DNA of 64,000 nt, taken from positions 1-64,000 of IMG/VR virus record IMGVR_UViG_3300014208_000031. One strand, given 5' to 3'. The notes below the pieces were generated by a model, which saw only the letters and a program-made list of their open reading frames with translations, did no database searches and had not been told where the DNA came from. Each line of letters begins with the position of its first letter. Positions within the stretch are counted from its first letter, which is position 1. Made by a program: the position numbers and the translations under genes. Shown piece by piece: positions 123 through 63,951 of this stretch. The DNA comes from a virus.

Positions 123-1496
123 ATGAAACCTACTGAAATTAAAATCATTAAACAAGCTAAAAAACTATTTAAGCCATTTTGGAATGAAAATGTAAATGTC
201 ACGCCGGCTTCTGCCCTAAGAATCCGCGCGGACATGATTGAATTTTTTAATTTAGTGAAAGAAGAATATATGTATAAACTTCAAAATAAAGAAAAAGTTG
301 AAATTAGTGATGAGTTTTTAACTGAATTAATTAAAGTTGTTCCACAAACTTATCGAGTCCATATTTTTATTGGATTGGTTAATGGAGTGAGTAAGACGTT
401 AGAATTAATTTAATCAATAAAAGATGATTAGTTTAATAGCGGCGACTAAAGCAAGTATTTTATCACTAGCATTATTCGCCAATCTTAACGGATTTAATTA
501 TAATCCGAGTGTTATTAGCGATTATACTTTGTGCGAAATGACTATGGATGTTAAAGTTTTATATATTAAACGGTATAAAAATGGGGACATTGGATATTTG
601 ACTGAAAAGGGCGGGCAAATTAATATTGTTAGATTAAAAAGTGGACAGTACTTGGTTGAAGAAATAGATTTTAAAAATAAATGAAATTTTCCGGCAAAGA
701 ACTATTTAATCTAGGCATTCCTCAAAACAAAATTAAGCTATTTGTTAATAGGGAATTTGAAAACCTAGAATCTTTGTTTAACGAGTTAAATAAACAAGAA
801 GTTAAGGATAAAGAAGTCACAGGCATTTCTATACTAGAATTTATTTGGAAACATTTTAAAAGCATTTTGCCGTGGATGAATAACGGCGATTTACCAGTTA
901 AAATGAGTAAGAGTGAATTAAAAAGGGTTATGGATAATAGCGGATTATTATTTAATGGCCGCCGACCAAACTCTAAAGATGTTTTTGATTTAGACGCTGA
1001 TTTTCCTATCAAAGAACTAATTTGGTTTCCCAATAGTAAAGAAAAGAAAACTACTTGGATTTAATAATTTATGAATAAATTCGACATTATAATCTATAAA
1101 CTATTTATTTGGTGGTTGGAGCCAAAATTAATTAGTAATCCAAAACTTGCACGATGTTTTCAACAATTTATTAATCATTGGTGTCAAAAACATTTGGATT
1201 GAGCCGCGGGATAACTTTTTAAAATAAAACTAAATAATATGATTGTTCAAAAATTCTATTGGACTAATATTAATAACTTTGAAGTGTCCGCCCGATATGT
1301 AGGGCATGGAGATTTTGAAGATTTTAAAGTAGTTTTTAAATATCCGGGGATTTTATTCAAACTAATTAAATGTGATCCGGGCGAGACTATTGAAGTAACA
1401 GGCGACGAAGGAATTAAAGAAAAATATAAAGCACCTGATGAAAATGAAATTATTAGGAGTTTAATTAATAAGGCTATTGAAAATAATAAACCTTAA
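123..1496 (+). CDS. Cluster of small hypothetical early ORFs (123-413, 424-684, 681-1064, 1239-1496)
   Basis: Tightly packed co-oriented ORFs with A-rich leaders. No recognisable family except 681-1064, listed separately. Confidence 0.65.
681..1064 (+). CDS. Hypothetical protein with possible C-terminal S4-like RNA-binding motif
   Basis: KMSKSELKRVMDNSGLLFNG resembles the S4 signature S(K/R)SEARRLIxxGGVxING. Confidence 0.4.
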   Translation: MKFSGKELFNLGIPQNKIKLFVNREFENLESLFNELNKQEVKDKEVTGISILEFIWKHFKSILPWMNNGDLPVKMSKSELKRVMDNSGLLFNGRRPNSKDVFDLDADFPIKELIWFPNSKEKKTTWI

Positions 1497-1554
1497 AACT
1501 TTGGTTTTAAATTTGATAAATAAAGGATATACTTTTAAGTAAATAAATTTTAAA

Positions 1555-1646
1555 GTCCCGTGCCCCGCTCAAACGCTTCTAACGTTTTGCACATTAAATA
1601 CCGGCGGATAATCGTGTACGGGGTGAGATACCTCCACGGGACACCA
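1555..1646 (+). ncRNA. Non-canonical tRNA-like RNA, anticodon UCU (Arg), D-armless, 8/4 acceptor/T stems, long variable arm, encoded CCA
   Basis: GTCCCGTG/CACGGGAC stem followed by A-CCA; AAACG-CTTCTAA-CGTTT anticodon arm; TGCAC-ATTA...TAAT-C-GTGTA variable arm; GGGG-TGAGATA-CCTC T arm. Confidence 0.75.
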
Positions 1647-1665
1647 TTTCCAAATAAATAATAAC

Positions 1666-1947
1666 ATGAAACTTTTTAGTTTTAAATTACAATACAATCA
1701 GGGAGTTTATCACGATAGCGAATGGGAGAGAGATATTATTACTCCAACTCAAATTACGGTATTAGCTGAAAATATTAAGTCCGCGCGGACGAAAGTAATA
1801 GATTTTATGGCTGATATTTTCAAAAGGGATTATAAATATTGCAGTAATTTAAAAGTAATGGTAAATCTGGAATTGGAAAGGTTGAATGAAAATCTAAAAG
1901 AATATAAAGAGGGTGAAGAAATTATTTATGTTAGTGGAGAAGAATAA
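1666..1947 (+). CDS. Hypothetical protein
   Basis: 93-aa ORF with A-rich leader. Confidence 0.6.
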   Translation: MKLFSFKLQYNQGVYHDSEWERDIITPTQITVLAENIKSARTKVIDFMADIFKRDYKYCSNLKVMVNLELERLNENLKEYKEGEEIIYVSGEE

Positions 1948-1960
1948 AAAAACAAAAATC

Positions 1961-2200
1961 ATGAAACACATTCCTAATCTAATAATCTTAATTTTGTGGG
2001 TGGCTATGTTTGTCGTTGGAATAATTAAACAAGACTACCTAACATTTCCTTTAATGTATTTATCGTGCGGAATGGTAGTCGCGGCAATTGGAATATTACA
2101 AAATAATCGTTTTTATCCTAAAATAATTCTATTTTGGCTGCCCGGATTATTTAGTGATAAATTAACTAATTGGATTTTGAATATTAAAAATAATGAATAA
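1961..2200 (+). CDS. Small membrane protein (2 TM); likely start MKHIPN at 1961
   Basis: Two hydrophobic stretches; the internal ATG avoids overlap with the upstream gene. Confidence 0.55.
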   Translation: MKHIPNLIILILWVAMFVVGIIKQDYLTFPLMYLSCGMVVAAIGILQNNRFYPKIILFWLPGLFSDKLTNWILNIKNNE

Positions 2201-2861
2201 ACATTTATACGTTTTGGGTGATATTCATGGTGAATTTGGTCAAATTAAACAATCTCTATTAAAACTAAATAAAAATCATTGGCCCGGCGATAGTTTTAGT
2301 TTAATTCAACTAGGAGATATGGGAATTGGATTTCCGCCGATGGAAAAACATCATGGAATTTGGCTATCAATTAAAGGTGAGCCGCGCGACCCTAAAGACT
2401 TTCCTAATAATTTTCATTTCATTAGGGGTAATCACGATAATTTAAAATATTGTAATAAATATCCTAATTACTTGGGAGATTATGGATTTAATAACGATTT
2501 AGGTATCTTTTATGTATCCGGCGCGGCATCACATGATAAAGCATTAAGAAAAGAAAATATAGATTGGTGGGCGGACGAAGAATTAAGTAATCAACAATTT
2601 TATGATTGCTTGGATTTGTATAGTAAAATTAAACCCAATATTGTAATTAGTCACGAGCCGCCAGTTGTAGCTCACGCGGCAATAAGAAAAGGCTTAGAGG
2701 TTAATAGTTCTAAAACTTCTCAAGCTTTACAATCTATGTGGGAAATTCATAAGCCTAATTATTGGTATTTTGGACATCACCATCTTATACTCAATAAAAA
2801 TATCCAAGGAACTAATTTTGTTTGTGTGGCTATCAATCAAGTAGTTAAAGTGAAACGATAA
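2193..2861 (+). CDS. Calcineurin-like metallophosphoesterase
   Basis: Ordered motifs LGDIHG, LGD, RGNHD, ISHE, FGHHH. Confidence 0.9.
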   Translation: MNKHLYVLGDIHGEFGQIKQSLLKLNKNHWPGDSFSLIQLGDMGIGFPPMEKHHGIWLSIKGEPRDPKDFPNNFHFIRGNHDNLKYCNKYPNYLGDYGFNNDLGIFYVSGAASHDKALRKENIDWWADEELSNQQFYDCLDLYSKIKPNIVISHEPPVVAHAAIRKGLEVNSSKTSQALQSMWEIHKPNYWYFGHHHLILNKNIQGTNFVCVAINQVVKVKR

Positions 2862-2901
2862 AACAAGTAAATTTGTCCGCCGGAATAAACTAAAAAATGT
2901 C

Positions 2902-2931
2902 TTGACAGAATAGGGTGTTTCGTGATAGAAT
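2902..2931 (+). promoter_or_regulatory. sigma70-like early promoter
   Basis: TTGACA-N18-TAGAAT with an A-rich UP region, upstream of ORF 2980. Confidence 0.7.
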
Positions 2932-2979
2932 AAAAACGAGTGGAAATTTCCACAGTCTAAAACCTAACTAAACAAAACT

Positions 2980-3384
2980 ATGAATACTGCATATAAAAAT
3001 CTTGAACGTCAAACTTTTGAACCAAAGTCGGGAGTTAAATCAAATATGGATTCTGTGGCGCAAAGCATGGTTATTGAACCAGAATACAAAAAATCGTGGG
3101 CATTGCTTCGCCGTAATCCGAAAATTATCGCTGATTCTGTCCGTAATTCTCGCGCCGAGCAAGCCGAAAAGCTTACTAATCTTCTTACTATCTCCGAAAA
3201 ACAAAACTATGGAGTTAAGAAGTTTTTGGTAGTTAAGAAATTTCAAGGCTTGTTCGCGCCGATTGGATTCCGTCGGACGTTCAAGAAAATTGAAGATGTT
3301 ATTAAATTTGCTGCCACTGAAAATCGACAAACCGTGCGAGTTATTACTGGCGCAGTTAAAAAAGACTACCCAGTTAATAACTAA
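2980..3384 (+). CDS. Hypothetical basic early protein
   Basis: 134-aa ORF directly after the promoter, leader CTAACTAAACAAAACTATG. Confidence 0.7.
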   Translation: MNTAYKNLERQTFEPKSGVKSNMDSVAQSMVIEPEYKKSWALLRRNPKIIADSVRNSRAEQAEKLTNLLTISEKQNYGVKKFLVVKKFQGLFAPIGFRRTFKKIEDVIKFAATENRQTVRVITGAVKKDYPVNN

Positions 3385-3396
3385 ATAAACAATTTC

Positions 3397-3480
3397 GGGA
3401 TAGTGGTGGAACTGGATTACACAAGAGACTCAAAATCTCTCGGCAGAAATGCCATGCGGGTTCGACCCCCGCCTATCCCA
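3397..3480 (+). tRNA. trnL: tRNA-Leu(CAA)
   Basis: GGGATAG/CTATCCC acceptor, AGAGA-CTCAAAA-TCTCT anticodon arm, class II variable arm GGCA-GAAA-TGCC, GCGGG-TTCGACC-CCCGC T arm, discriminator A; CCA not encoded. Confidence 0.95.
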
Positions 3481-3503
3481 TATTTAACTAAATAAAACAA
3501 CCT

Positions 3504-3942
3504 ATGGACGCCAACGAATATCAAATTATTAAACTAACGTGTATTACGGAAGAAATTCAAAGTCTTAGCTGTGTGGAAATGGCGCAAAGACAATGGACAA
3601 TGGGGCGGCTACGTTTGGGAATTATTGCTTTGCGCGCAGATGCCGATAAAATCCGCCCGATTAATCCTGTTTTGTATGGTTTGATTAACAATTATAAGTA
3701 AAAATATGACTACTCAACCTAAATCTCAAAAAACTAAAGTTAAAGTAACAATCAAATACAGAATTTATTCTGTGGATGAAAAAGGAATGTTAAACCGCCC
3801 TCTTCATTCTGGATATGGTGGGAATGATTATCCTAAATATGATGATAGTAATTCAATTGAAGAAGCCGCGCGGCTAATTGAAGAAGCTGGGGATTATTCT
3901 GAATATATTATTCTTCCTGTAACAAATAGTAGTATTGGCTGA
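3504..3942 (+). CDS. Two hypothetical ORFs (3504-3701, 3706-3942)
   Basis: Co-oriented, closely spaced ORFs. Confidence 0.6.
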
Positions 3943-4048
3943 TTAACTAATTTTAAATACAAAATATGGATCATATTATTAATTCTCTTATAATTAGTTG
4001 TGTCTGTGCAGTAATTAATCTTTATATTACAATAAGAAATCTGATTAA

Positions 4049-4438
4049 ATGTCTATGAACTCTTTCTCTCAAGTAAATAAATCAGCTAAACGGGTTAGTA
4101 ATTGCTGCATTGCTGATCTAGCAACAGATAAGGAATATAAAAAATATATTTGTTGTAAATGTGGTAACAATTGCGAAACTATTTCTTTCTATGAACAACT
4201 AACTGAAAACCTAAGTAATATATTTTTAGGTGAGAAAATTCATTTAGATATTATGGATGAATCCGGCGGATTTAGAAATTCTGAAATTCTTATTCCAGCT
4301 AACAAAAAGATTACTAAAAGTTTAATTCAAAAAGTGGCAGCGAATTATCAAACTGCTGAATGCGACCCATCACCTATCCGAAATAAATTGCGTGAATATA
4401 TTAGTAAAACAGCCGCGCAGTTTGGAGTGGAATATTAA
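4049..4438 (+). CDS. Zn-ribbon fused to a stand-alone fragment resembling the RpoB lineage-specific insertion of Verrucomicrobia
   Basis: N-terminal SNCC...CCKC..C. The C-terminal LTENLSNIFLGEKIHLD...EILIPANKKITKSL...DPSPIRNKLREYI matches my recollection of Verrucomicrobia RpoB (LTE.LS.ILLGEKIPLDVV...EIIIPANRKITKTLL...DPSPIRNKI.EII). Confidence 0.7.
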   Translation: MSMNSFSQVNKSAKRVSNCCIADLATDKEYKKYICCKCGNNCETISFYEQLTENLSNIFLGEKIHLDIMDESGGFRNSEILIPANKKITKSLIQKVAANYQTAECDPSPIRNKLREYISKTAAQFGVEY

Positions 4439-12289: not shown

Positions 12290-13700
12290 TAGAATGGTTA
12301 TTATTTAACTATAAAAACACTATAGGTTGTGCTTTGTCTCACAAAGTGATATATGGGTTGTATTGGTATAGAGTAAGTAAGATTTTGACTATAGGAAGAA
12401 TATATGTAACTAAGTAAGAAATACAGAGGAATAACATAGAGAGAATAACAAGTAAGTAAGTTTATTGAATGAGATTATGGATTTAATTAGTATAGTCATC
12501 GACTTTTTAATTATTTTTCTTAATATGCACATTGACGCATATGTTTTTTTATGAATAGTATTTTGTGAATTAACCTAGTGGTAAACTCTCATTCAATCCC
12601 TATGTAAGTAAGTAAATTATGAGCAAGAAAACGTACAAAAAAGTAAGCAAAGTGGATTGAGCCGCGCAAATTGAGCCAATTAGTTAGTAAATATCTAAAA
12701 ATTTCTCTCACTTTTTGTGTTAGTCGCGTAATATGCGCCCGAAAACTAAATAAAACTGTGAATAACCCTGAGTTTTGCACAAATTAGTAAGTAATCAAAA
12801 ATGTGATAAACCCTAGGAGATTAACATTTGTATGTGAATAACCCTAGCTTCGTCTCAATTATATTTATGGGAAAAGTGTAAAGGATATTAAACATTAACT
12901 AATATAAAACAATATGAATATAACTATAACAGAAAAACAACTAGCTGAGATGATTAAACAATGGTTTGAAGAAAACACCAGTAGCTTTAACGATAGAAAT
13001 TTTACAGCACGCAACGTAGTAGCCGCCGAATTAAAGAAACAAGTAAGTAATACAGGACATTGGAGGAATAAACGTAAGTCCGCGGGCTTACGCTCGAATG
13101 TTAGCTTTCTAAAACAAATTAAAGAAGGAATAAAGAATGGGAGTATTAGGCCACCGAATTCTGAGGTGAATAAATCACCAAAAAATAATGATAGTGAAGA
13201 TGCTTTTTAAGTAAGTAAATATCCGTCCACTTTTTAAGAAAATTCCTTAATATATGTGGTTTTGCGCATATGTAAAAACTCATCTTATGAAATACAGATT
13301 CGTAAAAACTCATCCACTTTTTAAACAATTTGCGTAATATGAGGGGAAAATTTAACTAGGTAAATAATTAACATACATTAACAATTAGCCGCCGTGGACA
13401 AACAAGTAAGTAAATAGTAAATATGAGTTAAATTCCTGGGCTGTTATTAACATATATTAACTATCTCGGTGCGTGGACAATTTATTTAAGTTAAGTAAAC
13501 AATCTTTCCTGGTTAAACATTAAGTTTTATTAAGTAAATATAAAATGATTTTTCGCTTGTTGGCATGAAAGTTTATATTCTGGAAACTATAAGTAAGTTT
13601 TTTGCTAAATGGCATGAATTTAAATAAGTTAGTACGGGTTAATCTTTTCTAGCAATCCCGGCGATTATGGGAATTATATGGGCTTAACGCCCTTCCTGGT
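12290..13700. repeat. Largely non-coding repeat-rich region (candidate replication origin or terminus)
   Basis: Four TGTGAWWWA-(A/C)CCT copies (12564, 12757, 12802, 12833), two of them perfect DnaA boxes TGTGAATAA; an imperfect direct repeat about 80 bp apart near 13370/13449; (AAGT)n runs. Confidence 0.45.
12914..13210 (+). CDS. Hypothetical protein preceded by the late-type motif
   Basis: 98-aa ORF with AGTGTAAA at 12875. Confidence 0.6.
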   Translation: MNITITEKQLAEMIKQWFEENTSSFNDRNFTARNVVAAELKKQVSNTGHWRNKRKSAGLRSNVSFLKQIKEGIKNGSIRPPNSEVNKSPKNNDSEDAF

Positions 13701-23431: not shown

Positions 23432-23596
23432 GTAAAATCTGCGATTTCAAATAAAAAAGTTTAATGCCGGTCGCGCGGCTAAGTTTTGGTTAAATCAAAA
23501 TAAATAAATTATTTTTTTAAAGATAAGTATATAATATTTTAAGTGTTAAAGTGTAAATATATAATTAGTTCTAAAATTGCAGTAAAAATATAAAAT

Positions 23597-30031: not shown

Positions 30032-33000
30032 ATGTCTTTTATCGAATCCCCAGCCTCGCCCAAAATTATTACAGATGTAAATGCTGAAATTTTATCCTTA
30101 CAAGGTTTTTTAGAGGATGAGCCAAATAAATATTATTTAGCGAAATTTTTAGAAAATAATTTAGCATTTACGATGAATTTACTCACGGGCGCGGATGGTA
30201 AAGGAATTGAGATGTATCCATTTCAAGAAATTTTACTCAAAATGTTATTTGACAAGGATAATGTTTTAACTATATGCGGAAGAGGTATCGGGAAATGTCT
30301 TCAGTATTCTAATTCAACATATTTAATAGAAAAAAATACGGGTTTTTCTCATATTAAAAATATTTTGCCTAATTTAAAATTTAATCAAGATGAAGAATTA
30401 GAAAATATAAATCGGTTAGAATTATGGAATGGGGACTCTTGGCAATCAACATCTAGAATTCTAAAACAGTCAAAAAAAGATAGCGCCACGGTAGTTACAA
30501 GTTTGGGGTATAAATTAGGGGGATCAACTAATCATCTGATTAAAGTTTTAGATGAAAAAATATGTAGAATAGTTTGGAAACGTTATCACGAATTAAAGAT
30601 AGGGGATAAAATTTGCGTAGATAGAAGTGAGCCCGAGTGGGAAATAGAATCTATAGAGGACGACGAAGCTTATTTTGTCGGATTGCTTTTGGGAGATGGA
30701 TGTATCTCTGCTAGAGCTTATTCTATATCTTCAGCAGATAAACAAACAATTGATTTTTGCGTAGAAAAATATAAGTGTAAAATTATTCCAGACAAAAGAT
30801 CGTCTGCGTGTTGCTCTATAAGAGTTAATACTGAAATCAGTCAATGGTATAAACAAAAATATGATTTTAAAGAGGAATTATCTTATTTCAAAAAGATACC
30901 GCAAAGAATATTAAAATCTAAAAAAGCTACAAAGAATTGCCTTCAAGGTTTATTTGATTGTGATGGGTCGGTTTGCAAAAATGGTACAATTATAGATTTT
31001 TGCTCAACCTCGGAAGAAATGGCATACCAAGTTCATACGCTGCTTCTGACTTTTGGGATTACTAGTAGAATTCGATTAAAAACAACAAAATCTAAATTTG
31101 GTAAAGCTTGGTTGGTTTATATTACCGGGGAAAATTGTAAGAAATTTATGGAGAAGATAGGTTTTAGACTATCTAGAAAAAATAATTTAGCTTTAAAATA
31201 TTTAGCGTTAAATAAAAAATTTAATACTAATAATAATGTTGTTTACGGTGCTAATGAACAGATGTCTCTTGTTAAGAAATCTTTAAAGATGATTGGTGAA
31301 ATGTCAAATGAATGGCATACCAAACATAGAAAAAGAAGAAAAAGTCAGCAGAAAGAAATTAGTTATGAACGACTAAGTAGTGTATTAGATTTTTTTAAAC
31401 GGAATGAAGTAAATAATGACATTATCAATGATTTATTGGAAATAGAAAAAACTAATTATTTTTTTGATCCAATTGTATCAATAGAATTATATCAAGATGA
31501 TTGCATTGATTTTTGTGATATTCCTAATGGAAATTGTTATTGGTCTAATGGTTTTTTAAGTCACAATACAACTATTGCCGTTTGGTTTATTGCGCTGTAT
31601 TGCATTTTATACCCTAAGACTAAGATAGGAATACTTTCACCGAGCTTTCGTAAATCACGAGATATTTACAAGGGCGTTGAGGATTTAGCTGGAATGAAGG
31701 GCGCGCATTTATTGAGACAATGTATTAAAGATAAAAAACAAGCGCCGGATTTGTGTTGGATGCAGTTTGAAAACGGTTCAGAAATATTTAGTTTGCCTTT
31801 AGGATCGAGCGGCGAAAAAATTCGCGGCTACAGATTCCAGGTCGTAATTTTGGATGAAGCCGGGTTCGTACCAGAAAAAATTATTACAAATGTTATAATT
31901 CCCTTTTTGAGTACAAACTTTGATCCAATAGAGAGAGAAAAAACCAGAAATAGAGAAAATGATTTGATTGCTAAAGGTTTAATGACGGAATCGGATAGGA
32001 TGATATATAAGAATAATAAATTTTTAGCCTTTAGTTCGGCAACATATCAATTTGAATTTTTATATCAAATGTATAAGAATTATAAAAAATCTATTCTTGA
32101 TCCAAAGCCAGACCAGTTTGCTTCTTATGGTTTATTTCAGATGAGTCATGAAGCCGCGCCGGAAGGATTATTAAATAAAGCTTCTACAGAAAATGCTAAA
32201 AATTCTCTTTCTTCAATGGAATTTCAAAAAGAATATTGCGGTCAATTTCCGGCGGACTCAGATAGCTATTTTAAGATGTCTAAAATGGAAGATGCAACCG
32301 TACCATCAGGCGAAGACCCATCTATTGAGATAGTAGGAGAGAAAAATGGTAAATATTTGGTTTCTATTGACCCCAACAGTATGAACGACGCGACCTCAAG
32401 CGATCATTTTGCGATTTCTGTATTTAAGTTAAACATGGAAGACAATACAACTGTTTTGGTTAATCAGTTTGCCGCATGTGAGCTAAATATCATAGATTAT
32501 GTTTGGTATTTTTCATATATTCTAGAAAATTTTAATGTTGTTATGGTGGTACTAGATGAAGCTGGTGGCGGGACTTTTATAAATGTTTGTAACGAATCCA
32601 TTCAATTTAAAGAAAAGAATTTAAGGTTAGAATTTTTTAGTGCAGATTTTGATGTTGATCCTAAAGAATATGTCAAAGAATTAAATAGGGCTAGACGAGA
32701 CTATAACCTAACCAGTAAAAAGATTTGCTATTCTCAATATTTTCTTAATCCATTTAAATTAGCCGCCAACGAGCATTTAAAATATTGTATTGAATATAAG
32801 AAAATGCTTTTTGCTTCAAAACCACATGAGATTAAAGAGGAAAAAATGTTGAAAACTCATATTCCAAATTTTGATAAACTTAAATTTATATCTGGAGAAG
32901 ACTTTGATCAAAAAATGTCTAACGATGATATGCAAAAAATTAGAAGACAGGATTTTATAGACCATCAAGTATTTTTAATGAAAGATGTAAAATGTCAATG

Positions 33001-33211
33001 TGCTCTTATAGAATTAAGACCAGAAGGAAACAGTATTAAACTTGAATTACCATCAAATATTCGTCGTTTGCGTGGCATTAATATGGTGCGTCGCGATTTG
33101 TGGACGAGCCTATTTTTAGGAAATTATATGGCTAAGAGATATTTTGATATGATGTCCACGGACGACAGATTCAACTATAATTCCAACTGGACTCCTTCAA
33201 TCGTAGGTTAA
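30032..33211 (+). CDS. terL: Terminase large subunit containing an intein
   Basis: Walker A GRGIGK|T split by the intein, IRG, Walker B VVILDEA, EYCGQF, nuclease motifs VSIDP and DHFAI. Confidence 0.92.
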   Translation: MSFIESPASPKIITDVNAEILSLQGFLEDEPNKYYLAKFLENNLAFTMNLLTGADGKGIEMYPFQEILLKMLFDKDNVLTICGRGIGKCLQYSNSTYLIEKNTGFSHIKNILPNLKFNQDEELENINRLELWNGDSWQSTSRILKQSKKDSATVVTSLGYKLGGSTNHLIKVLDEKICRIVWKRYHELKIGDKICVDRSEPEWEIESIEDDEAYFVGLLLGDGCISARAYSISSADKQTIDFCVEKYKCKIIPDKRSSACCSIRVNTEISQWYKQKYDFKEELSYFKKIPQRILKSKKATKNCLQGLFDCDGSVCKNGTIIDFCSTSEEMAYQVHTLLLTFGITSRIRLKTTKSKFGKAWLVYITGENCKKFMEKIGFRLSRKNNLALKYLALNKKFNTNNNVVYGANEQMSLVKKSLKMIGEMSNEWHTKHRKRRKSQQKEISYERLSSVLDFFKRNEVNNDIINDLLEIEKTNYFFDPIVSIELYQDDCIDFCDIPNGNCYWSNGFLSHNTTIAVWFIALYCILYPKTKIGILSPSFRKSRDIYKGVEDLAGMKGAHLLRQCIKDKKQAPDLCWMQFENGSEIFSLPLGSSGEKIRGYRFQVVILDEAGFVPEKIITNVIIPFLSTNFDPIEREKTRNRENDLIAKGLMTESDRMIYKNNKFLAFSSATYQFEFLYQMYKNYKKSILDPKPDQFASYGLFQMSHEAAPEGLLNKASTENAKNSLSSMEFQKEYCGQFPADSDSYFKMSKMEDATVPSGEDPSIEIVGEKNGKYLVSIDPNSMNDATSSDHFAISVFKLNMEDNTTVLVNQFAACELNIIDYVWYFSYILENFNVVMVVLDEAGGGTFINVCNESIQFKEKNLRLEFFSADFDVDPKEYVKELNRARRDYNLTSKKICYSQYFLNPFKLAANEHLKYCIEYKKMLFASKPHEIKEEKMLKTHIPNFDKLKFISGEDFDQKMSNDDMQKIRRQDFIDHQVFLMKDVKCQCALIELRPEGNSIKLELPSNIRRLRGINMVRRDLWTSLFLGNYMAKRYFDMMSTDDRFNYNSNWTPSIVG
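30296..31567 (+). mobile_element. Intein (424 aa) with LAGLIDADG endonuclease, inserted in the terminase P-loop
   Basis: Begins GK|CL and ends SHN|T; motifs FVGLLLGDG and LQGLFDCDG. Confidence 0.93.
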
Positions 33212-33280
33212 TATTTTCTATAATAAAAGTATATAGTTTAAATAAACCAAAGATTAAAGTGTAAATAAATTGTACTAATT

Positions 33281-37032: not shown

Positions 37033-37596
37033 ATGAATGTAATTACTACTAATAAATCTAATGGTTATTATATTCCATATTTAGAAGGTAATGCAGGAAT
37101 GACATTACTCTCTTTAGAGTCTGGCAGTAATGATGATGGATATTATTTACTTCCAAATGGATTAGATTTTGTTTTTCCGTTTTACGATATTGAATACTCG
37201 TCTGATATTTATGTTGGAACTAACTCCTATATTACATTTGGATATGGATCGACTAGTTTAAGTGCTAGCTGTAATTCTCCGGGACGAGGAATATTTTTTA
37301 ATACTAAAGATAATAGCTGTGATAACTTATATTTTCTAAAAGAAAAAAATAGATTAAGGATAAGATTTGAAGGGTATAATGCTACAAGTGGCACCCCACC
37401 GTATACATTTGTATGGGAATGCTCTTTATGGAGAAATGGTAATATTACTCTTGTAACTGGAGATATTGAGAATCTAGAAGCTTCTTTTACTGGAATGACC
37501 GATGATTTAGGAAATTGTCAGCAGTTTTCAATAAGCCCCAACAAAACGTTTGTTTTTATAAAAAATGGTAGTTTTTATAATGTTATTACTAAGTAG
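37033..37596 (+). CDS. Nidogen(NIDO)-like domain protein
   Basis: FVFPFYDIEYSSDIYVGTNSYITFG motif. Confidence 0.5.
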   Translation: MNVITTNKSNGYYIPYLEGNAGMTLLSLESGSNDDGYYLLPNGLDFVFPFYDIEYSSDIYVGTNSYITFGYGSTSLSASCNSPGRGIFFNTKDNSCDNLYFLKEKNRLRIRFEGYNATSGTPPYTFVWECSLWRNGNITLVTGDIENLEASFTGMTDDLGNCQQFSISPNKTFVFIKNGSFYNVITK

Positions 37597-37927
37597 CATC
37601 TGTTTTATATCTTTAGTATTATTTTTATTATTTGATACAAATGTTATTGCAGATTATTGTAAATTTTTAAAGTTAAATCCACCTCATTTTAAAGAGTATC
37701 TAGAGATAGAAAAGAATGGCGGCAGCGCTCACTATTTAAAGTTTGTTAGAGGTGTTTATCATAATAACTTTTTTATTAAATTAATTTCTTGTTCAACATG
37801 CTTGTCTGTTTGGCTATCTTTAATTTTATCTTTAATTTCTTTTAATCTTTTAAATTATCCGATAATTAACGCGGGCGGGCTTTTAACATATTTCCTTTTA
37901 AAACTTTTATACAAATTTTCTAGTTAA
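37565..37927 (+). CDS. Membrane protein with CxxC..W motif (DUF1360-like)
   Basis: TM segments and KLISCSTCLSVW. Confidence 0.5.
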   Translation: MVVFIMLLLSSICFISLVLFLLFDTNVIADYCKFLKLNPPHFKEYLEIEKNGGSAHYLKFVRGVYHNNFFIKLISCSTCLSVWLSLILSLISFNLLNYPIINAGGLLTYFLLKLLYKFSS

Positions 37928-37995
37928 AGTATATATTAGAATAAGCAGTTAAAATAAAATTATGAATGAAAATAAAAATATAGATAACCAATCAA

Positions 37996-38120
37996 ATCTA
38001 ACGACCCAAAGATCAGCGACAGCGGAGGAAGGCGCGATGCCTGCACGGCGGGCGGGCCAAGTGGAGGCGGAAGCAGGCAGCGTGCCTGACGTAGCTGTTC
38101 GCTGCATCGCTTGGTTAGGC
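37996..38120 (-). repeat. attC: attC site (125 bp) of the integron cassette
   Basis: Minus strand: R'' GCCTAAC, CAAGC, L'' GATGCAGC, GAACAGC ... GCTGTC, L' GCTGATC, TTTGGGTC, R' GTTAGAT; two unpaired bases in the R''/L'' arm. Confidence 0.92.
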
Positions 38121-38165
38121 GATTTGTGGAGGGATTGGAAAAAGATATTGTGCGTATCTGGCGGA

Positions 38166-38582
38166 CTATTTCTTACCGCCTTCCTGAGTTTTGGTATCTA
38201 CGCTTGGCTTTGGTATGGGATCGACAGTTATATCTTTCGTCTTTGGGTTGTTGTTGATTACGGGATTGGATATGTTGGTGCCGGTATCGTTCTGTGTAGT
38301 CTTTGGCGGCTTCATAAGAGTTTGGCAGCTAACAATACACGATGGAACGCCGAGTATGATCGTGACTACGGTGAGAGCCGTAATGACAAAAGTTAAGCAC
38401 CGAATGGATTCGTTAAGTTTAACGCTTTTTTCCGCGTAAGTTCCCGCTCGCTTATCTAGTTCCGTTAATAATTGTGCTAATGCGTCAAGAATTAGTAGCA
38501 GTCCGGGGTTCTTCCCGGACGGATCATTCTTCTTGTTAGCTTCTATTATTTTCAATAAGTCTTCGGGGTCCATTTGCGGCAT
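38166..38582 (-). CDS. Cassette gene 3: single-TM protein
   Basis: TM segment LTFVITALTVVTIILGVPSCIV; ends 45 bp before attC. Confidence 0.65.
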   Translation of the reverse strand: MPQMDPEDLLKIIEANKKNDPSGKNPGLLLILDALAQLLTELDKRAGTYAEKSVKLNESIRCLTFVITALTVVTIILGVPSCIVSCQTLMKPPKTTQNDTGTNISNPVINNNPKTKDITVDPIPKPSVDTKTQEGGKK

Positions 38583-39149
38583 TTAGTGTTTGCTGCACTG
38601 ATAGAAAATAAGTGGAATAACGAAGACGATAACAAAAGCCCATCTGAGAACGCCGAGATGAGATGTTGCCTTCTGTTGTTCTTCGACAACCTGCTTTAGC
38701 AGTTGGGATTCGCTGCTTGAAGAGAATTGCCATTTGTCGTTCTGGCAAAACTTCTTGACGGGTTTCCATTCTCCAAGGTCTTTGTGGTAGAAAAGTGTGT
38801 CGGAAGTTATGGAGCCCGCGTTCCACATTGAACGAATTTGGGCGGGTGCAAATGGGCCGCTTTGCTGGCCGTCCTTGCTTAAATAGCATTCAGCGTTTGG
38901 GTGCGGACTACTTTCTGCCTCCTCAATTGAATAATTGCTGACATACGGCGCGAACTGAGGGAACTTTTTAATCGGAATATAACTACTTCCTGACCAGAAA
39001 CCGCATTCTCGGCATAGAGCTTTAACCGTGATGCGGGTTCGTTCTTTACACAAAGCAATAATGAAATCCTCCGACTCATCTTGGATGATTTCAACCCCAT
39101 CTACTGAAATGGCATACGTCTTTGGCTTCGGATTTTTAGGTGCGGCCAT
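38583..39149 (-). CDS. Cassette gene 2: GYF_2 (DUF4339) domain protein with C-terminal TM (likely start MAAPK at 39149)
   Basis: YLSKDGQQSGPF...IRSMWNAGSITSDTLFYHKDLGEWKPV. Confidence 0.8.
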   Translation of the reverse strand: MAAPKNPKPKTYAISVDGVEIIQDESEDFIIALCKERTRITVKALCRECGFWSGSSYIPIKKFPQFAPYVSNYSIEEAESSPHPNAECYLSKDGQQSGPFAPAQIRSMWNAGSITSDTLFYHKDLGEWKPVKKFCQNDKWQFSSSSESQLLKQVVEEQQKATSHLGVLRWAFVIVFVIPLIFYQCSKH

Positions 39150-39185
39150 AAAAAGTGTAAAGGAATAGTATGAAAACAAACGATA

Positions 39186-39410
39186 CTACTTCATCAAACG
39201 CGATAGCTGGCTTGAAATCTCTTTTAGATTCTTTGACTCATTTGCGATGTTTTTGGACAGAGCAGTTAGCTCTGCACGAACTTCGGGATTCAAGTTTGGC
39301 AAATGCTCGGCAACCAGCGCATACAAACCAGAGTGAGAAGTAATTAGGTCTGAAAGATACGTCCCGAGCTTAGATGTAAAATCGAGCAAAACTTGTTCGT
39401 TGTCAGTCAT
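39186..39410 (-). CDS. Cassette gene 1: small helical protein (74 aa)
   Basis: First ORF after the crossover point, with an A-rich leader. Confidence 0.65.
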   Translation of the reverse strand: MTDNEQVLLDFTSKLGTYLSDLITSHSGLYALVAEHLPNLNPEVRAELTALSKNIANESKNLKEISSQLSRLMK

Positions 39411-39471
39411 AGTGTTGGTTTTTTTGTTTCTTAATTTACGTATGGAAATTTAGGGGAGACTTGGGGGAATA

Positions 39472-39560
39472 GCCTAACTCTTTGAACTGAGCGACGGCGT
39501 GAATAGATATAGCAAAAACCACCGATGTAAAGCGCCGTTCGCTCTAGTGAATGGTTAGAT
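39472..39560 (-). repeat. attC: Resident gene-less attC site (89 bp)
   Basis: Minus strand: R'' ATCTAAC, CATTC, L'' ACTAGAGC, GAACGGCG ... CGCCGTC, L' GCTCAGT, TCAAAGA, R' GTTAGGC. Confidence 0.92.
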
Positions 39561-39568
39561 TAATTTTT

Positions 39569-39597
39569 ATTATAAATTTTTAAATATTAAGTGTAAA
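39569..39597 (-). promoter_or_regulatory. Candidate Pc-like sigma70 promoter reading into attC and the cassette
   Basis: TTTACA-N17-TATAAT on the minus strand; the -35 box overlaps the + strand late motif AGTGTAAA (39590). Confidence 0.5.
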
Positions 39598-39604
39598 TAT
39601 AACT

Positions 39605-40303
39605 ATGAGTCTCAAATATTTAGCTATTTTTATATGTCTAGCTATTTCTTTTACCGGTTGTTCAACTGTTAAAAAAAGACAGACTAAACAAACTTCAATA
39701 TTATCCGCCGCGATAAATGATAGTATAAAAGTCGGGCGATTCGATAGAGCTAAAGAATTTTCTGATCAGTTGGTTAAATTAACTCCGCCTGTTAAAACTA
39801 AAGATAAAATCAAGGTTAATAAATTTCAAACAGTTAGGGTAAATATAGATAAAAAAGGAATATTTACTAAAGAAGAATTAATACCTGATAAGAAATTTAT
39901 AGTTTTGCCAGAAGGCTCTAAAGTAGAAAATGTTATAGTAAAGAACGATGAACAATTTAAACTAATTTTAAATGAAAATCCTAAATTACAAAAAGAAGAG
40001 CTAAAAATAGACGAAGAGCTAAAAAAGTCAGAAGAGAAAGTCAATCAAATTTTAATTGATAAGGAGAATGAATTAGAGAAGTCGCGCGGACAAAATAAAG
40101 GATTTTTCTCGTCAATCTTTGGATTTTTTAAAGGATTATTTGGGTTAGGTTTGATTGGTACAATAATAATTATAATAGCTACGGCATTTTTAGCCCCCGA
40201 ATTTTTACCAGTGATATTTACCGCTATTAAGTGGTTTTTTAAATGGTGTATTAATTTATTTGGTGGTTTGATCAGTGGAATTATGTCTTTTTTTAAAAAG
40301 TAG
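39605..40303 (+). CDS. Lipoprotein with C-terminal TM; candidate unimolecular spanin
   Basis: Signal peptide ending ISFTG|C, coiled coil, hydrophobic C-terminus; first gene of the lysis cluster. Confidence 0.6.
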   Translation: MSLKYLAIFICLAISFTGCSTVKKRQTKQTSILSAAINDSIKVGRFDRAKEFSDQLVKLTPPVKTKDKIKVNKFQTVRVNIDKKGIFTKEELIPDKKFIVLPEGSKVENVIVKNDEQFKLILNENPKLQKEELKIDEELKKSEEKVNQILIDKENELEKSRGQNKGFFSSIFGFFKGLFGLGLIGTIIIIIATAFLAPEFLPVIFTAIKWFFKWCINLFGGLISGIMSFFKK

Positions 40304-63866: not shown

Positions 63867-63951
63867 ATAGTTTTATATCCTTTTAGCTATATTTATTTAC
63901 ACTTAATTCTGATAAAAATGAAGAAATATTTTAAAAAAGTTTAATAAAAAT

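Follow-up and report, generated by a model that had tools for sequence, protein, structure and literature searches.

How does a complete integron gene cassette come to lie in the genome of a phage that carries no integron integrase? The question is raised by a locus in the first 64,000 nucleotides (the window throughout this text) of the IMG/VR virus record IMGVR_UViG_3300014208_000031, a phage genome of 167,664 bp with a G+C content of 0.33 that is 100% complete according to CheckV. Two attC recombination sites on the minus strand of the window, attC1 (39472..39560) and attC2 (37996..38120), lie 1.35 kb apart and bound three small genes. A preliminary description had read the locus as a solo attC which the phage keeps as a trap, so that integron integrase (IntI) supplied by the host can load and unload cassettes between fibre and lysis genes. 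We show that both sites belong to an attC family of Verrucomicrobiota. A history in two steps, in which attC1 was resident first, having arrived through a joint not made by IntI, and the cassette was then inserted at attC1 by host IntI, has in our view about an even chance of being correct.

The recombination sites and their family

attC1 is 89 nt long, with R'' ATCTAAC and R' GTTAGGC, and attC2 is 125 nt long, with R'' GCCTAAC and R' GTTAGAT. The inverse core sites R'' (RYYYAAC) and R' (GTTRRRY) are present at both ends of each, and sequence and predicted DNA fold give the two sites a common build: the R box has 7 bp, the spacer 5 nt, and the 5' arm of the L box carries two additional bases. 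A pattern derived from the 5' halves of both sites was used to scan a species-representative genome collection. More than 120 genome contigs matched, nearly all from Verrucomicrobiota (Chthoniobacterales, Verrucomicrobiae), and many of them contained arrays with up to 12 copies in 8 kb. Six of the nine metagenome-assembled genomes (MAGs) with pattern arrays that were tested possessed an intI gene above the curated NCBIfam cut-off of 265 bits. On contig C8 of MAG G003 the array (292252-304972, minus strand) is situated 1 kb from a divergent intI (305981-306931, 468 bits), and the MAGs G002 and G005 are similar. In the G005 stretch C19:1-14000 (L175) intI (12653-13534, minus strand) points toward the attC array and shares the strand of the cassettes, whereas the layout in G003 is divergent.

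From 27 attCs of such MAG arrays, several of them next to intI, a covariance model (R1) was built. It comprises 24 base pairs, nine of which show compensatory changes. The alignment of its training sites has an R box of 7 bp, a spacer that is asymmetric, two unpaired bases in the 5' arm of the L box, and a loop that varies. A pattern from the phage served to find these sites; their 3' halves, their pairing and their intI context are independent of that pattern. R1 matched attC1 (43.4 bits, E = 1e-9) and attC2 (53 bits, E = 2.5e-12) over their full length, exactly at the coordinates and with the end heptamers given in the preliminary description, and these were the only full-length matches in the window. 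The other 104 kb of the phage gave no match. A covariance-model search had been proposed as a check on the earlier reading, and over the phage genome it singled out these two sites alone. When aligned to R1, both keep all core pairs and the two unpaired bases on the 5' arm, with a spacer of 5 nt versus 7-9 nt. Over its full length attC2 shares 80.8% identity with an attC in a stretch of G003 (L172) where the array lies beside intI. Rfam holds no attC family and gave no match for either site. Short of a biochemical test, we regard it as settled from sequence and fold that attC1 and attC2 are genuine attCs of the family that fills the integron arrays of Verrucomicrobiota. Recombination at G|TT by IntI acting on the folded bottom strand may have taken place here; what the locus displays of it is the sequence signature only.

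attCs of the same family were also seen on 36 IMG/VR contigs (L128-L163), several of which contained arrays of 7-12 sites. Most of these contigs have a G+C content of 0.45-0.65 and their attC regions blend with the surroundings, the exception being L142 (0.33), to which we return below. Misclassification of the contigs, or prophage calls that include host arrays, may account for them. A looser version of the 5'-half pattern gave mostly chance matches in IMG/VR; attCs supported by the model were found at 5 of 79 loci, all on GC-rich contigs.

The G+C content changes sharply at both boundaries of the insert, as would be expected if phage and bacterial DNA had been joined during assembly, and a chimeric assembly had been named as one finding that would undo the preliminary description. 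An artefact of this kind, or a chance occurrence of palindromes, deserves practically no credence. The same junctions were found on a 63-kb ENA contig and on a separate 10-kb Logan contig, with 99.99% identity (one base different in 8-12 kb each), and the stretch is also present in sequencing runs from two groundwater studies (2018 and 2022). On either side of the insert the DNA continues with syntenic phage genes. Chance palindromes are opposed by the R1 E-values of 1e-9 to 1e-12, with no other match in 168 kb.

The cassette and its genes

Between the two G|TT crossover points lies a cassette of 1476 bp (38002..39477, minus strand), which opens with TTAGGC and has as its last base the G of R' of attC2. 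It is composed of three minus-strand open reading frames (ORFs) followed by attC2, and its start TTAGGC is complementary to GCCTAA of attC2. The composition of the cassette is foreign: its G+C content is 0.44 against 0.33 for the phage, the insert ranges from 0.41 to 0.50 against 0.26-0.30 in the flanks, and the third codon positions of the three ORFs have a G+C content of 0.47-0.48 against 0.20-0.27 in the neighbouring phage genes. Sequence and composition thus bore out the earlier description of a cassette with three genes of higher G+C content, cut at G|TT.

The first ORF, c74 (39186..39410, minus strand), was taken from the ORF list and is also called as a gene on the Logan contig. It would encode a helical protein of 74 aa, which had no Pfam match over the cut-off and no match in PHROG, PADLOC or NCBIfam; the ESM Atlas returned only a generic helical hairpin. 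The product of c188 (38583..39149, minus strand; 188 aa) contains a GYF_2 domain at residues 89-132 (Pfam PF14237, E = 1e-12) and a C-terminal membrane helix. Its homologues are 49-63% identical and are found on short GC-rich contigs. Directly after the stop of c188 starts c138 (38166..38582, minus strand), encoding 138 aa with one membrane helix and a low-complexity tail. The sole detectable homologue of c138, P0126 (42% identity, 85% coverage), is a single-gene cassette on two short contigs (L194 and L195), where it is flanked by attCs of the same family (40-46 bits). To judge by P0126, at least some of the cargo appears to come from the cassette pool. The ORF of this bacterial cassette has a G+C content of 0.39, while its attC has 66% G+C; therefore the value of 0.44 in the phage cassette needs no amelioration. 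An antisense ORF of 144 aa (37962-38396, plus strand), which runs from the phage flank through attC2 and c138 and is called as a gene on both the ENA and the Logan contig, was rejected: it is probably spurious and c138 the real gene, because c138 has a conserved homologue.

Searches of PHROGs, PADLOC, NCBIfam and the ESM Atlas gave no usable assignment of a function to the cargo. It appears to be a small operon of membrane-associated proteins. We take the insert as a whole to be a real integron cassette, of apparently Verrucomicrobial origin.

The phage and its probable host

On the plus strand the genes around the locus are arranged in the order terminase (with an intein), portal, fibre-like protein, p187, p120, insert, p232, p162, lysozyme and further structural genes. 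The insert was placed between the stop of p120 (37927) and the start of p232 (39605). p120 (37565..37927, plus strand) flanks attC2 at a distance of 68 bp and has homologues in the related phage contigs L183, L186, L187, L316 and L317. p232 (39605..40303, plus strand) flanks attC1 at 44 bp, and in L183, L187 and L317 its homologues directly follow those of p120.

The locus is an integrase-less attC cluster (CALIN): it has two co-oriented attCs and one cassette, and no integrase is found in the 167.7-kb record. TIGR02249, PF00589 and PF00239 were all without match there, so that neither an integron integrase nor any other tyrosine recombinase nor a serine recombinase was detected; the absence of an integrase noted earlier for the window extends to the whole genome. 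Compared with a complete integron, intI is absent and a promoter-like site is present but lies in phage DNA. The attachment site attI is not recognisable by sequence. The phage is probably virulent. As it has no recombinase of its own, any recombination of its attCs must use host IntI in trans.

The host was probably a member of the Verrucomicrobiota, to judge by the taxonomy of the attC family and by a stand-alone ORF of 129 aa (4049-4438, plus strand). Five Verrucomicrobial MAGs were compared: the predicted product of this ORF is 51-52% identical to the insertion in RpoB domain 6 in four of them and 48% identical in the fifth. It resembles a copy, carried by the phage, of an insertion domain of host RNA polymerase and may be a useful host marker.

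The large terminase (1059 aa; 30032-33211, plus strand) holds an intein with a LAGLIDADG endonuclease. The terminases of L183 and L187 also have the intein, and those of L185, L316 and L317 are intein-free, with 626-631 aa.

Promoter-like sequences around the insert

In the phage flank, directed into attC1 and the cassette, lies a sigma-70-like promoter sequence (39569..39597, minus strand) with TTTACA and TATAAT separated by 17 nt, which matches the consensus at 11 of 12 positions. A consensus scan ranked it as the best of 13 such sites in the region, against 7.6 expected, and transcription is predicted to start at the first bases of attC1. By its position it could serve the cassette as the equivalent of the integron promoter Pc.

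A second promoter-like motif, TTAAGTGTAAATA (39587..39599, plus strand), is situated just upstream of the start of p232 and also precedes the p232 homologues of L183 and L187. Allowing one mismatch, it occurs six times in the window against 0.44 expected, at 23547, 33255, 39587, 42781 and 54897 on the plus strand and at 63894 on the minus strand. The copies at 33255, 39587 and 42781 are just upstream of the starts of portal, p232 and p597. This motif is a candidate phage promoter.

Integron DNA in related phages

Relatives of the phage surfaced only through a protein database. The locus gave no megablast match against 50,697 GenBank phages, and single-protein scans of IMG/VR with p187, c188 and portal found no relatives. 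The closest portal homologues are 51-69% identical to the portal of the phage. In L183, L187 and L317 the homologues of p120 and p232 are 3-18 bp apart with no attC between them; in L186 and L316 other genes stand between them and no attC is present at the locus. The portals of these distant relatives are 51-65% identical to that of the phage.

Two of the relatives carry attC clusters elsewhere. L316 (ENA ERZ19570319 scaffold_23; 119 kb, G+C content 0.34, portal 51% identical) possesses, upstream of PhoH, an array (1177-4100) in which five cassettes are accompanied by five complete attCs and by the 3' half of a further, truncated attC. Its upstream boundary lies inside the attC that is missing its 5' half and its downstream boundary at an R' end, and its attCs are 84-86% identical to attCs on contigs of the genome collection, including a Chthoniobacter sp. 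MAG (L027). The other, G006 (IMGVR_UViG_3300046778_000197), is a 51.7-kb fragment with a portal about 32-36% identical and many shared genes at 25-58%. At a different locus it has its own cluster of two attCs with one ORF of 90 aa (G006:C1:19128-19691, corresponding to L142:3482-4045) and no recombinase. The outer R boxes of this cluster, TTCTAAC and GTTAGAA, are complementary but non-canonical. Phages of this clade thus appear to take up integron DNA repeatedly, and at least once, in L316, apparently as a raw array fragment.

How the cassette came to lie in the phage

It is established integron chemistry that IntI exchanges strands only at the G|TT in R'. The 44 bp between attC1 and p232 align with the orthologous spot in L183 (84% identity over 38 nt), and the alignment extends to about 4 nt from R''. 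In other words, R'' of attC1 abuts ancestral phage DNA, and since IntI acts only at G|TT in R', at least one joint in any model was not made by IntI.

In the two-step history integron DNA would have entered the phage through at least one such joint. attC1 would then have been resident for long enough to let its unconstrained loop drift AT-rich, while the R and L boxes stayed paired. In the second step, during infection, a free cassette circle would have been joined to attC1 by host IntI, through recombination of its folded attC at G|TT, and the product would be the present three-gene cassette with a fresh attC2. The cassette may now be transcribed from the sigma-70-like promoter in the phage flank, as from the Pc of an integron, and the module would still be excisable or exchangeable wherever host IntI is made.

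The preliminary description took the swapped ends of the two sites as a sign of insertion into an empty attC. The complementarity itself is present, between the outer as well as the inner ends. As proof of such an insertion it did not hold up: among 92 neighbouring attC pairs in ordinary arrays the inner ends were complementary in 78 and the outer ends in 49 (53%). Outer complementarity is common because the combinations ATCTAAC/GTTAGAT and GCCTAAC/GTTAGGC dominate the family. In attC1 and attC2 it fits the two-step history but barely discriminates, about half of all pairs being expected to show it by chance.

The frequency of matching outer ends in arrays also suits a simpler event, in which a ready-made attC-cassette-attC piece of an array was captured in one step by illegitimate or template-switch recombination, perhaps at the hairpin bases; IntI would never have been used, and the neat ends would be coincidental. 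The R''-side joint, impossible for IntI, agrees with this, as do the relatives without attC at the locus. The array of L316, with five cassettes and its upstream boundary in a truncated attC, is a clear case of array-fragment capture. A capture of this sort requires that both breakpoints fall near the ends of attCs, the one on the R'' side at about 4-16 nt and the one on the R' side within 68 nt. It also gives no reason to expect an attC1 of outlying composition beside a typical attC2, as two sites which came together from one array should not differ in this way. We consider it possible, if somewhat doubtful.

The two sites differ in composition. attC2 has a G+C content of 0.64 (loop 0.72), which is typical of the family, and attC1 only 0.46 (loop 0.31). 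Among 179 family sites the minimum was 0.48 and the median loop value 0.60, so that attC1 is below every full-length site; the only family member with a value about as low is 66 nt long and has hardly any loop. When aligned with the short attC subclass (about 89-93 nt) to which it belongs, attC1 proves to have kept R box, L box and proximal stem and to have lost the GC-rich distal stem. In addition to the complementary outer ends, the intact core stems, with decay confined to the distal stem, stand on the side of a two-step history. Because attC1 is AT-shifted while attC2 is typical, a longer residence of attC1 in a genome of 33% G+C is favoured, and this is hard to explain if the two sites arrived jointly; the argument concerns a loop of only 29 nt and a family sample that was itself selected by means of a pattern derived from the two phage sites. 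The earlier landing-pad reading gains from the loop of attC1, which favours an older resident site, and is weakened by the R''-side joint, not made by IntI, and by the relatives lacking the site.

Could IntI itself have opened the phage genome at a secondary site? It might have inserted a two-cassette circle at an attG (GWT) site in phage DNA, with a later deletion of the first cassette's body. Insertion by attC x attG recombination is efficient and small CALINs and isolated cassettes (SALINs) arise by it (Loot et al., bioRxiv 10.1101/2022.09.11.507474), and the right-hand boundary is exactly at G|TT in this phage, G006 and L316. We rejected an attG insertion on the R'' side, as there is no G between TTAAGTGTAAATA and attC1 and therefore no G|TT joint that fits. 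Such a route would also require an extra precise deletion, and the outer complementarity would be due to chance in AT-rich DNA. It is very improbable.

The strongest form of the two-step history is the trap of the preliminary description, a solo attC maintained by selection as a place between the fibre and lysis genes at which cassettes are loaded and unloaded by host IntI. It would account for core stems that were preserved in attC1 while its loop drifted towards AT, and the strong promoter-like site just upstream resembles Pc. Two distant relatives (G006 and L316) also have attC clusters, and recombination of phage attCs with IntI1 has been shown (Qi et al. 2023, PMC9892861). The site is missing from all five relatives read at the locus, and the clusters of the relatives are at other loci, so there is no conserved landing pad. 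No empty site was observed; one cassette state was seen, in three near-identical assemblies. The adaptive claim found no supporting evidence. A comparison of the locus among relatives had been proposed in search of an empty site or other cassettes, with relatives lacking the attC altogether named in advance as an argument against the trap, and relatives without any attC there, though distant ones, are what the comparison yielded. A maintained trap is plausible, though we think it unlikely.

Several further points weigh against insertion of the cassette by IntI at a resident site. Fewer events suffice if an array fragment was captured in one step, and such a capture is documented in L316; the origin of the first attC is left unexplained. 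All five readable relatives are without attC at the p120/p232 locus, distant as they are. The comparison suggests that the site is not an old conserved feature of the locus; these relatives are too distant to inform on its recent history. No variant with an empty site or another cassette was present in any assembly searched: neither JGI metagenomes nor IMG/VR contained an exact match to a 28-mer at the start of p232, and JGI metagenomes were also without match to a 22-mer of attC1. The readable contigs with c188 homologues (L003-L007 and L193) contain no attC of this Verrucomicrobial family. A cassette of three ORFs without an internal attC is unusual. Finally, the putative sigma-70-like promoter is only a consensus match in AT-rich DNA.

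If the two-step history is nevertheless pursued to its end, the clade of AT-rich virulent phages of about 160 kb might be looked upon as an integrase-less extension of the integron of its integron-bearing Verrucomicrobiota host. Resident attCs preceded by phage promoters would be loaded and unloaded by host IntI during infection, attC1 would be a docking site of long standing whose function selection has preserved, and cassettes would travel in both directions between lytic phages and chromosomal arrays. We think this extended picture rather unlikely.

Relation to known integron elements

Integrase-less attC clusters on phages have been known since 2023. Qi et al. (2023, PMC9892861) described 17 CALINs in temperate and virulent phages, found that five of six tested phage attCs recombine with IntI1, and proposed that CALIN phages access, shuttle and spread cassettes. 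The present locus leaves their picture unchanged. Like their CALINs it has at least two co-oriented attCs with cassettes and no phage intI, and the host is thought to supply IntI. It differs in that the family of the donor attCs and the intI-bearing host phylum have been identified, although it is known from sequence alone. It also differs in belonging to an uncultured groundwater phage of 168 kb linked to Verrucomicrobia, in having two attCs of differing apparent age and in having two relatives with separate clusters.

With the sedentary chromosomal integrons of Verrucomicrobiota (MAGs G002, G003, G005 and others) the phage shares the attC family, as seen in the R'' and L'' sequences, the two extra bases and the lengths of 89-125 nt, as well as the G|TT logic of the cassette. 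Unlike them it has no intI, no attI and no long array, its context is of 33% G+C and its promoter lies in phage DNA. SALINs and attG insertions, the isolated cassettes and small CALINs of Loot et al. (bioRxiv 10.1101/2022.09.11.507474), resemble the locus in that isolated cassettes lie far from an integrase, rely for their expression on a resident promoter nearby and are excisable if IntI is supplied. An insertion of that type yields one attC with the cassette's own start at the opposite end, whereas here a complete upstream attC abuts phage DNA at R'', a joint which attG insertion does not leave behind.

Phage morons are independently transcribed accessory genes inserted between core genes. 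The insert shares with them its foreign composition, its place between conserved neighbours, its orientation on the opposite strand and a promoter-like site of its own. Morons, however, are not bounded by site-specific recombination sites as this insert is.

Implications

The locus represents a clean natural case of integron cassettes passing from chromosomal arrays into a phage without integrase, and it is unusual in that the family of the donor attCs and the likely host phylum can both be named. The separate attC clusters of this phage, G006 and L316 suggest recurrent cassette traffic in the group and not a single event. The picture of Qi et al. (2023) is thereby extended to uncultured environmental phages, with a hint that phage-borne attCs may persist and be reused. 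The phage and its relatives offer a concrete system in which the action of host IntI on phage DNA during infection, and the role of cassettes encoding small membrane proteins, could be studied.

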